NCBI GenBank assembly: GCA_023732985.1
Contig: GCA_023732985.1_3946.1
Length of the DNA: 64,000 nt
Source: a phage
Strand: one strand, 5' to 3'
Shown here: positions 50,122 to 51,770 of the stretch, one piece after another
Numbering within the stretch: the stretch's first letter is position 1
Layout: the number at the start of each line of letters is the position of its first letter
Position numbers and translations under genes: made by a program
Notes under the pieces: generated by a model
Told to the model about the DNA's origin: nothing
Seen by the model: only the letters and a program-made list of their open reading frames with translations
Database searches by the model: none

Positions 50122-50901
50122 ATGGGTATTGTAAAAGTTGTGAAAGGTAACTTACTAGCTGCCTTCAAAAACACAGACATTGAGTTAATTGCTCATGGTT
50201 GCAACTGCCGTAACCTCATGGGTGCTGGAATCGCTCAAAAAATTGCTAAGATTTTCCCAAAAGCTGAAGAAGCTGACCGGAAATTCCATAAAAAGTTTGG
50301 CTACAGCGCTCATGATATCGGATACCAGATGGTTGGTGAGGTGTCACATGCTCGAACGGAGTATGGTTACATTTTTAACCTATATACACAGTTGGATGTT
50401 GGGAAGTGTGCATCATACCGATACTTAGTGGAGTCACTAGAAAAACTCCGTAAATTTTGCTGGATGCACAACATTCGTAAGATTGGTTTACCCATGATTG
50501 GTGCAGGTATCGGTGGCTTAGACGCACAAGCTGTGAAAAGCCTCATTAATAGCGTTATGTACAACGTTGATGTGTACCTATACGTCTATGATGAAGCAAT
50601 GGCAACTGTAGTTACCCCTAAGTATGCCACCTCAGCACCACAATTCTATGATGGTGTCGTGCTAAGTGACGGTAAATCTAACCATGTTACCCTCTATCAG
50701 CTTGTTGATGGTAAGGTCGAGGCTAGTTACCCTCTGGTTAGTGAGATGGGTATGTGTAATAGTGAAATGTTCTCAATTGACCCATTTGGTAGATACGAAG
50801 GGGTGTTCTTTGATAACTACCCAGCAGCATACATCTACACAACAAATCAGGATGAAGTTCACTACTTGCTGTATTCTAAAAAGTTCAAATTCATAAACTG
50901 A
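50122..50901 (+). CDS. macro-domain (ADP-ribose binding / hydrolase-like) protein
   Basis: IAHGCNCRNLMGAGIAQKIAKIFP and IGLPMIGAGIGGLD resemble the two glycine-rich macro-domain signature segments; ~100 aa C-terminal extension. Confidence 0.55.
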   Translation: MGIVKVVKGNLLAAFKNTDIELIAHGCNCRNLMGAGIAQKIAKIFPKAEEADRKFHKKFGYSAHDIGYQMVGEVSHARTEYGYIFNLYTQLDVGKCASYRYLVESLEKLRKFCWMHNIRKIGLPMIGAGIGGLDAQAVKSLINSVMYNVDVYLYVYDEAMATVVTPKYATSAPQFYDGVVLSDGKSNHVTLYQLVDGKVEASYPLVSEMGMCNSEMFSIDPFGRYEGVFFDNYPAAYIYTTNQDEVHYLLYSKKFKFIN

Positions 50902-50980
50902 TTAGTGCTTCACAGCACCTATAATTAATCTAAAAAGGCCGCCTAACCCATTGAAAAATTTAAGGTAAGGTGGTCTTTTT

Positions 50981-51123
50981 CATTTTCAATTTGTGCAGGT
51001 AGCTGTATAGGTCTGCACAGGTGTCTCAAAAAATCTCATCGCCGGATAGAAAAATCATTTTCAAAACGTGCAGACCCCGCTCAGGTCGGGCAAGAAAAAT
51101 CATTTTAGAATCGTGCAGGTAGG
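50981..51123 (+). repeat. three tandem copies of (AAAAAT)CATTTT-N2-AA-N2-GTGCAG motif
   Basis: Copies at 50981-51000 (with GCTGTATAGG, matching 46497-46520), 51051-51077 and 51095-51123. Confidence 0.5.
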
Positions 51124-51145
51124 TTTTTATAGAGAGTCAGACCAA

Positions 51146-51176
51146 CCCCTCTCCCCCTCTTACTCCCCCTCTCCCC
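51146..51176. other. polypyrimidine tract CCCCTCTCCCCCTCTTACTCCCCCTCTCCCC (G-quadruplex motif on minus strand)
   Basis: Four C-runs of 4-5 separated by 3-7 nt in a ~39% GC genome. Confidence 0.5.
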
Positions 51177-51297
51177 AAAAGTCAAGAGAAAAATTTGTAG
51201 TGGATTGAAAAATAATTCTTGATTTGTGTTTTGTTTTGTGGTAGTCGTGCGCGCCCGTTCATTTCCCAACCTTACAAAAAATATTTAATAAAAACCG

Positions 51298-51326
51298 TTG
51301 ACACGCCAAACAAGTTTACGTACTAT
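51298..51326 (+). promoter_or_regulatory. sigma70-like promoter (TTGACA-17-TACTAT) at head of cassette array
   Basis: -35 TTGACA 51298-51303, 17 bp spacer, -10 TACTAT 51321-51326, AT-rich upstream tract. Confidence 0.5.
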
Positions 51327-51375
51327 TTGCATCAGACGGGCAAGCTAGCCACTTCCTAAACTGGAGAATCTAAAA

Positions 51376-51567
51376 ATGGCATCAAGAAAAATCAAAGTCG
51401 GTGATGAGGTTAACGTTAAGTATGAGCACTCTCATAAAATGTTAACTATTCGCTCTTACAAGGTTTATCAGGTGGAAGCTATCCACGAAGACGGTACATT
51501 TTCCCTAAAAGGACATAGCGAACGTTTCCCTGCTGAATTGTTCGAAAAATGGAGTACTAAAAAATGA
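51376..51567 (+). CDS. hypothetical small protein, cassette array ORF 1
   Basis: ORF preceded by conserved CCTAAACTGGAGAATCTAAAAATG initiation region. Confidence 0.45.
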   Translation: MASRKIKVGDEVNVKYEHSHKMLTIRSYKVYQVEAIHEDGTFSLKGHSERFPAELFEKWSTKK

Positions 51568-51770
51568 TTTACAGCCGTGAATTGATGGTTACAACTAACG
51601 TTAACACAAAGGTAAAACGTTTTTACATGCAAATCTGTGGCGTATGGTCCAGAATATCAGAAGCCGACTATTGCAACTATGTAGAAACGGCAATCAACTC
51701 GAATTGCTACCTTACAAGAAACACTAAGAATTTTACAAGGCAGACAGCGATTTACTACTACGATAAATAA
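51564..51770 (+). CDS. hypothetical small protein, cassette array ORF 2
   Basis: 68 aa ORF translationally coupled to ORF 1. Confidence 0.35.
   Translation: MIYSRELMVTTNVNTKVKRFYMQICGVWSRISEADYCNYVETAINSNCYLTRNTKNFTRQTAIYYYDK

Follow-up and report, generated by a model that had tools for sequence, protein, structure and literature searches.

The CT-element of c-MYC, NHE III1, is a promoter-upstream element with G-quadruplex (G4), i-motif and H-DNA (intramolecular triplex) character. Here we analyzed a 31-nt tract of similar make-up at positions 51146-51176 of a 64,000-nt stretch of phage DNA (NCBI GenBank assembly GCA_023732985.1, contig GCA_023732985.1_3946.1), referred to below as the window, which belongs to a Felix O1-like myovirus of the genus Felixounavirus. 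Like NHE III1, the tract is C-rich with four or more C-runs, is homopyrimidine/homopurine, and lies roughly 120-190 bp upstream of a strong promoter; on paper G4, i-motif and H-DNA are all possible, and the driver that we propose is the negative supercoiling produced by transcription. Unlike NHE III1, it resides in an enterobacterial phage, beside a direct-repeat array, and about half of the relatives have an unrelated filler in its place. We propose that the tract is an element prone to non-B-DNA that acts, if at all, as DNA and tunes the adjacent module, a tentative view that we put a little short of an even chance and in which both the structure and the regulation are read from sequence. 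The tract itself belongs to a known kind of element; greater novelty lies in its surroundings, a conserved module so far undescribed.

A second comparison is with the pilE-associated G4 of Neisseria, which together with a cis small RNA is said, after Cahoon and Seifert, to trigger cassette recombination. The pilE G4 needs a neighbouring promoter from which the motif is transcribed with the G-strand as non-template. Like the pilE element, the tract is a single, genome-exceptional G4 at the upstream edge of a cassette-exchange locus. In contrast, no such promoter was found next to the tract, the scan having given no minus-strand sigma-70-like site in 50800-51500, and no recombination end-points are demonstrably focused on it, the joint seen in phage LF110P2 (described below) being ambiguous.

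The module around the tract can also be compared with origins built of iterons and an AT-rich region, such as lambda ori, SPP1 oriL/oriR, T4 oriE and P1 oriR. As in these origins, three to five unique repeats in the same orientation are followed by a block of 74% A+T, and this layout of unique same-orientation repeats beside an AT-rich region is non-coding and subfamily-wide. The module differs from the iteron origins in that its repeats and AT-rich block are separated by a G/C-run tract, and no initiator protein is annotated in the related phage Pr103Blw.

To our knowledge, no Felix O1-like phage has been reported to inject its DNA in two steps, although the module has features in common with the iss region of T5: both are repeat-rich non-coding regions at the inner edge of a terminal early-gene block with strong host-type promoters. 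The first-step-transfer DNA of T5 makes up 7.9% of its genome (bioRxiv 10.1101/866236), compared with 7.5% from the genome end for the module, and the repeats of Kolesnikvirus match the DnaA box at 8 of 9 positions. In contrast to T5, the early block here lies outside the terminal repeat, and the Felixounavirus repeats match the DnaA box at just 6 of 9 positions.

The sole quadruplex motif of the window is also a mirror repeat

The plus strand of the tract reads CCCCTCTCCCCCTCTTACTCCCCCTCTCCCC (31 nt), with letters and coordinates exact on direct check of the window. Two overlapping features were found at this site.

51146..51176, minus strand: G-quadruplex / i-motif motif, with G-runs of 4, 5, 5 and 4 and loops of 3, 7 and 3 nt
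51144..51178, no strand assigned: perfect mirror repeat AACCCCTCTCCCCCTC-TTA-CTCCCCCTCTCCCCAA, with 16-nt arms and a 3-nt spacer

The minus strand therefore has the geometry stated in a preliminary description of this DNA (runs of 4-5, loops of 3, 7 and 3 nt) and carries the four G-runs of at least 3 on one strand, with loops of 1-7 nt, that define a canonical putative quadruplex sequence (PQS). The C-runs of the plus strand (4, 5, 5 and 4) correspond to the definition of an i-motif as four C-tracts of at least 3 and ideally at least 5. When both strands of the 64-kb window were scanned, the tract was the sole quadruplex motif with loops of 1-7 nt, whether built of G-runs of at least 3 or at least 4. 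The window has a G+C content of 38.5%, and among 1000 of its dinucleotide-preserving shuffles, any motif of G3-runs appeared in 3.1% and a motif of G4-runs in 0%, which bears out the earlier remark that such a motif is very unusual in a phage of ~39% GC.

Scoring with G4Hunter, which had been suggested as a check, gave -2.45 over the 31 nt and -2.36 in a 25-nt window. Absolute scores of at least 1.5 are regarded as high, and those above 2 as very likely to fold in vitro; no other region reached 1.7 in the window or in the genome of Pr103Blw. In that complete genome (88,421 bp with both terminal repeats) the tract was again the sole quadruplex motif. AT-rich virulent phages have next to no strong quadruplex motifs, and in an 88-kb genome the tract stands alone. 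Run with its G-quadruplex option, ViennaRNA predicted a 4-layer quadruplex at -23 kcal/mol, to which we gave little weight because the program uses RNA parameters and behaved erratically on 3-layer variants.

We found that the tract has a second unusual property. On the plus strand 30 of its 31 bases are pyrimidines, both 14-nt arms within it are purely pyrimidine, and the mirror repeat into which it extends is the only perfect one in the window with arms of at least 10 nt. The tract thus shows the homopurine/homopyrimidine asymmetry and the mirror arms of at least 10 nt with a short spacer that characterize H-DNA, and because of its perfect mirror symmetry and its 30 pyrimidines in 31 positions it is also a textbook H-DNA motif. 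Watson-Crick hairpins or cruciforms in or around the tract, on both strands and for both alleles of the site (see below), were no better than in shuffles (z = +0.1 to +0.9). The preliminary description had overlooked the mirror repeat with its H-DNA reading, as well as the neighbouring direct-repeat array and the allele polymorphism.

Four-run pattern and allele polymorphism among relatives

Among the 256 Ounavirinae records that match, Salmonella phage Si3 is the nearest relative over the tract region (94% identity). A slot between conserved flanks holds the tract.

51122..51176, no strand assigned: 55-nt slot between the flanks GTGCAGGTA and AAAAGTCAA, with the tract as its 3' part

In the window this slot holds allele A, which is GGTTTTTATAGAGAGTCAGACCAA followed by the C-tract. 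A second allele, B (GGTGGGTGCAGGTGGGGATGTCGCCATTTCTCACAAGGCTACCACATCTGGAAAT), is not related to allele A and lies between the same flanks. Allele A was found in about 113-116 records (Felix O1, Si3, wV8, HY02, Pr103Blw, SUSP1/2 and all Mooglevirus), and allele B in 143, including EC6, AYO145A, Meda, CL1 and wild-type VpaE1.

All 16 distinct variants of allele A, from Felixouna-, Susp- and Mooglevirus, retain at least four C-runs of at least 3 and qualify as PQS. In wV8 a C5 run has moved by 2 nt, and both the run and the slot length are retained. The mirror pattern is followed in a similar manner: the right-arm differences between Felix-type and Moogle-type tracts (positions 7, 10 and 11 from the centre) are all matched in the left arm (p about 0.011). 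This preserves the mirrored arrangement of C and non-C in Moogle-type tracts (15-16 of 16 positions). The left arms of Mooglevirus are interrupted by two A. From these comparisons, selection appears to have kept the four C/G-runs and, largely, the mirror symmetry of the arms in the lineages that carry the tract.

The highest |G4Hunter| score of the intergenic region falls in the slot in every lineage, with -2.36 and -2.16 for allele A, -1.60 for Erwinia phage Harbringer (Kolesnikvirus) and +1.5 for allele B. We take the apparent G4 potential of allele B on the opposite strand as a hint only, because its score of ~1.5 is variable and comes partly from the conserved repeat end, and because one variant has just three G-runs.

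The main rival to a structural role is that the slot is neutral filler of which length alone (55 nt) matters, keeping the distance from the repeat array to the AT-rich block fixed. The C-tract would then be one of two frozen fillers, conserved through recent ancestry and recombination in the flanks. We regard this as unlikely, if far from negligible. It agrees with the fact that in Felixounavirus alleles A and B are both exactly 55 nt long, that each is 95-100% conserved among its own carriers, and that phages are viable with either allele and show no host association, both alleles occurring in Escherichia and Salmonella phages. Across genera, however, the length of the slot varies (55, 51 and 49 nt for allele A, and 45 nt in one allele-B variant), yet the four runs survive: with 7 of 31 positions changed between them, Felix-type and Moogle-type tracts are both quadruplex motifs, an outcome expected for 7.6% of random mutants with seven substitutions. 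The mirrored changes in the arms also argue against neutral filler, as does the C-rich tract that follows the last repeat in the Erwinia Kolesnikvirus even though the rest of the slot fails to align; furthermore, for a motif found in none of 1000 shuffles to have arisen as random filler would be a large coincidence.

Outside the GenBank records, a loose scan of IMG/VR for the flank-gap pattern gave mostly chance matches, which were filtered by a 24-mer found downstream of the slot, and copies of the tract in IMG/VR came from Felixouna- and Suspvirus contigs only. The single bacterial match, in a metagenome-assembled genome of Oscillatoria princeps (L148, 7890-7945), is a tandem repeat of the form (CTCTTACTCCCC)n with a G-rich inverted copy after it. 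It shares a 21-mer with the tract, which is about chance level for a 21-mer in 596 Gb, and its context is unrelated.

Sequence records break inside the tract

A further line of evidence comes from records, several of them Illumina/Nextera assemblies, that end or are rearranged at the tract. Two IMG/VR contigs, L007 and L009, start with the complete Nextera P7/i7 adapter joined to ...CCCC AAAAGTC and CTCTTACTCCCCCTCTCCCC, respectively, with the adapter fused onto the last one or two C-runs. The VpaE1_ev035 record contains a mosaic-end palindrome (CTGTCTCT/AGAGACAG) within the tract, half of which is duplicated. The EC106 record stops at ...CTCTTACTCCCC and lacks the next approximately 190 nt, and the Andreotti record, from which about 5 kb are missing, stops in a fold-back chimera just 5' of the tract. 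In LF110P2 the tract is joined to a downstream cassette leader, a joint that is ambiguous between deletion and misassembly. This joint is the sole hint of the recombination that the preliminary description had suggested at the array boundary, alongside possible effects on transcription and fork passage.

Contig ends at the tract retain at most two or three of the four runs, and break points within it vary by up to 16 nt and carry adapter sequence. Broken records make up 4 of 116 GenBank records with allele A and 0 of 143 with allele B (Fisher p = 0.039). The affected records are LR699048.1 (L032, positions 240-290), ON210138.1 (at its ends), MN850610.1 (at its ends) and OZ035782.1 (L033, positions 350-360); these four, together with L007 and L009, are probably misassembled at the tract. 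The breaks are artefacts of library preparation or assembly. As indirect evidence, they suggest that fragments with all four runs were under-amplified, which amounts to an accidental polymerase-stop assay and is consistent with a stable four-run structure in single-stranded templates. In practical terms, the tract is a recurrent point of assembly failure at which several public records are truncated or bear adapter.

Since a number of contigs and records have one end in the tract, it could also be asked whether contigs that start there mark the end of the virion DNA. We give practically no credence to this explanation, and a genome terminus or pac site at the tract was rejected because the terminal repeat lies about 7 kb away and the break points scatter and carry adapter.

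The conserved non-coding module around the tract

The tract sits in a non-coding spacer of 474 nt that runs from the stop of a macro-domain 'phosphatase' gene (50901) to the start of the early array's first small gene (51376). The order of elements in this module is terminator, direct repeats, slot, invariant 24-mer in an AT-rich block, and first early promoter.

50932..50980, plus strand: intrinsic terminator hairpin and T-tract closing the upstream operon (-9.9 kcal/mol, z = -2.7)
50980..51122, plus strand: three direct repeats with consensus TCATTTTCAAAACGTGCAGGTAG, starting at 50980, 51055 and 51100, the last two with a 45-bp period
51177..51200, no strand assigned: 24-mer AAAAGTCAAGAGAAAAATTTGTAG, invariant in allele-A phages from Felixounavirus to Mooglevirus
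51177..51245, no strand assigned: AT-rich block (74% A+T) that holds the 24-mer and an imperfect inverted repeat AGTCAAGA...TCTTGAyT
51298..51326, plus strand: sigma-70-type promoter TTGACA-17-TACTAT, the first of the small-gene array (10/12 matches)
51376-51567: first small gene of the array

The position homologous to the terminator is annotated as a rho-independent terminator in AYO145A. A degenerate fourth copy of the direct repeat lies at 51207-51228; no further copies occur in the window, where none would be expected by chance. Relatives have three to five copies in the same orientation with a period of about 40-45 bp, and the array is present in Mooglevirus, Suspvirus and the Erwinia Kolesnikvirus. 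In the whole genome of Pr103Blw the direct repeats and the 24-mer are unique, one match with four mismatches elsewhere looking like chance. Phages with allele B carry the 24-mer with a G to C change at position 10. The preliminary description had placed the tract ~120 bp 5' of the promoter, in agreement with the 121 nt that we count between the end of the tract and the -35 hexamer.

The order of elements is unchanged in Mooglevirus and Suspvirus. In Harbringer a terminator is followed by four repeats TTTTCATTTTCAATTTGTGCATAG and by CCCACCCTCCCCTCTACC, with a TTGACT-17-TATATT promoter farther downstream; its repeat array (L036, 2310-2480) has copies that contain TGTGCATAG, the 8-of-9 match to the DnaA box TGTGNAWAA, to which the Felixounavirus repeats fit poorly. 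Because the order is kept in Kolesnikvirus though the sequence no longer aligns, the module is old. The direct-repeat array, kept in all four Ounavirinae genera, is a candidate origin or regulatory site, and no description of it was found in the literature that we searched.

The position of the tract directly between a unique repeat array and an invariant 24-mer would also suit a protein-binding site, in which the C-runs, as duplex or single strand, are bound within a nucleoprotein complex on the direct repeats and binding rather than non-B structure is selected. We consider this rather improbable. The run pattern has been kept rather than the exact sequence, and the layout resembles that of the origins of lambda, SPP1 and T4 oriE, but dimeric DNA-binding proteins select inverted repeats and not mirror symmetry, no candidate binding protein was identified, and allele B has no comparable site.

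The sigma-70 scan passed no promoter leading into the tract, either on the minus strand (50800-51500) or on the plus strand inside the spacer; by eye the best minus-strand candidate is TTGACT-17-TAAGAG, which does not have the conserved final T of the -10 hexamer. The spacer around the tract is probably untranscribed. This bears on the idea that the plus strand works as RNA, either as a C-rich, G-poor rut (Rho-utilisation) site backing the upstream terminator or as a C-rich anti-Shine-Dalgarno small RNA against the GGAGA ribosome-binding sites of the array, which we think very improbable. C makes up 71% of the plus strand, in which YC dinucleotides are frequent and TCTCC is complementary to the conserved GGAGA of the array, and the tract lies 3' of a terminator that could leak. 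Nevertheless, there is no promoter upstream in the spacer and a strong intrinsic terminator precedes the tract, the C-rich stretch of only about 31-35 nt is short for a rut site, and neither a stable RNA- or DNA-type hairpin nor an Rfam family was found, all Rfam matches falling far under the gathering scores. Allele B could not fill such a role because it is G-rich at the position of the tract.

Several relatives have a hypothetical protein annotated for a minus-strand open reading frame (ORF) at 51105-51269 (54 amino acids), Pr103Blw_00144 being one. That the tract is conserved as part of this coding gene is extremely improbable, as the ORF has a TTG start and a low-complexity product (...FGERGSKRGRGVG...), and in Mordin another minus-strand ORF is annotated elsewhere in the spacer. 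We rejected the ORF because slot differences of 4 and 6 nt break its frame and allele B replaces the whole sequence.

A conserved hairpin formed by the inverted repeat of the AT-rich block (AGTCAAGA/TCTTGAyT) was likewise set aside: it has no significant energy, and Mooglevirus shows a one-sided change from G-T to G-C, but allele B gives a C-C mismatch. As for published work, we found no transcriptome or promoter paper mentioning Felixounavirus, our searches on Felixounavirus terminal repeats turned up no origin mapping, and the portion of the PhageMaP paper on Felixounavirus Bas63 available to us has nothing on the intergenic region of the tract.

A proposed role at the DNA level

Since the tract lies between a terminator and a promoter and is probably untranscribed, it is best read as an element that acts at the level of DNA. 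According to the twin-domain model, transcription makes negative supercoils upstream, and in E. coli transcription has been shown to drive the formation of Z-DNA, cruciforms and dG·dC triplexes upstream of promoters. In the mechanism that we propose, rightward transcription from the strong early promoter or promoters would send negative supercoils upstream and make the tract leave B-form. It would then adopt an H-DNA triplex, or a G-quadruplex would form on its bottom strand and an i-motif on its top strand. Such a transition would absorb supercoils, the tract being the one site of the genome able to take up that stress, and could change the topology or accessibility of the neighbouring repeat array and AT-rich block. 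The result may be a tuned promoter output, or a tuned initiation or binding event on the repeats, for example by a replication-initiation complex. The mirror covariation favours H-DNA, while the conservation of four runs, the assembly breaks and the weak G-runs of allele B on the opposite strand favour G4 and i-motif; the two readings cannot be separated.

Several observations weigh against a structural role. About 143 of about 256 sequenced relatives (~55%), close Felixounaviruses included, are without the tract. The tract is therefore not essential but a dispensable accessory element, and any function it has is either non-essential or supplied differently by allele B, which is not homopyrimidine and is only weakly rich in G-runs (down to three in the variant mentioned above). 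The preliminary description had called for a check of conservation in related phages and had named absence or variability of the tract in close relatives, if without phenotypic consequence, as evidence against its proposal. On this point the outcome is divided: the four-run pattern is kept in the 16 variants from three genera, but EC6, AYO145A, Meda and wild-type VpaE1 lack the tract, and the relatives without it carry the unrelated 55-nt filler. In addition, the slot of Harbringer has only three C-runs of at least 3, plus a CC, and the mirror symmetry is imperfect in wV8 (13/16) and SUSP1 (10/16), both of which still have four runs. The conservation statistics depend on few independent lineages, and the assembly breaks reflect polymerase or library trouble only and carry no information on function in vivo. 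There are physical constraints as well: strand opening is required for a G-quadruplex within duplex DNA, and i-motifs and C-rich triplexes form only at acidic pH or under strong supercoiling.

A broader version of the proposed DNA-level role would place the tract in an undescribed, Ounavirinae-wide cis-control region made up of the terminator, repeats, G/C-run element and AT-rich block. This region, at the inner edge of the terminal early-gene block and ~7.5% from the right end, would be a replication origin or a T5-like pause site of DNA entry, and the quadruplex or triplex element, on either strand and in two alleles, would act as a topological switch linking early transcription with the opening of the origin or with resumed entry. 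We regard this combination as a long shot. Felix O1-like phages find wide use in Salmonella typing and biocontrol, and the module is in any case a reasonable candidate for their replication origin or for an early control region. Furthermore, the filler of the same length in about half of the relatives is a natural knock-out of the tract, so that a function of non-B-DNA in a bacterial virus would be unusually easy to test here by allele swap.

The terminal gene block and other loci

The genome ends of related phages have been determined: UAB_Phi87 (Felixounavirus) has a 608-bp direct terminal repeat, established by Bal31 digestion and run-off sequencing (PMC4837284), and Pr103Blw has one of 581 bp according to PhageTerm (PMC8303462), annotated in its record at both ends. 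The terminal repeat of Pr103Blw maps to 58269-58859 of the window with 90% identity, about 7 kb downstream of the tract. The presence of this homologue indicates that the virion DNA ends inside the window and that the small-gene array (51.3-58 kb) forms the right-terminal block. In Pr103Blw the tract lies 6,636 bp (7.5%) from the right genome end. The small-gene array is transcribed toward the genome end, and its content is mosaic between relatives.

The macro-domain 'phosphatase' gene upstream of the tract (50122-50901) is a rare allele. A protein at least 90% identical was found in 13 phage records only, and the counterpart in most Felixounaviruses is only about 41% identical; on account of this rare allele, the region around the tract is strongly mosaic.

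Within the small-gene array, at least five cassette leaders share a common unit (51752-51871, 52222-52341, 52568-52687, 54237-54356 and 55033-55152). In four of them a promoter TTTACA-17-TAAAGT, TAAGAT or TATCTT has a spacer that holds the left arm of an 8-bp hairpin (GGGGCTTA...TAAGCCCC), and in the leader at 51752-51871 a TTTACA-17-TAGAGT site lies just 5' of the hairpin. After the hairpin come AGATAAAGAGCTTTACCACT, CCTAAAyTGGAGA and then ATG. This unit corresponds to the 57-bp direct repeats of the Felix O1 genome paper (PMC3185647).

Finally, the motif CCTTTCCCTTTCC recurs at 57867-57884, at 58542-58554 (minus strand) and at 62163-62175. With four matches of at most 2 mismatches compared with 1.3 expected, a number reached by 4 of 100 shuffles, its recurrence is of marginal significance; two copies are close to the terminal-repeat homologue.

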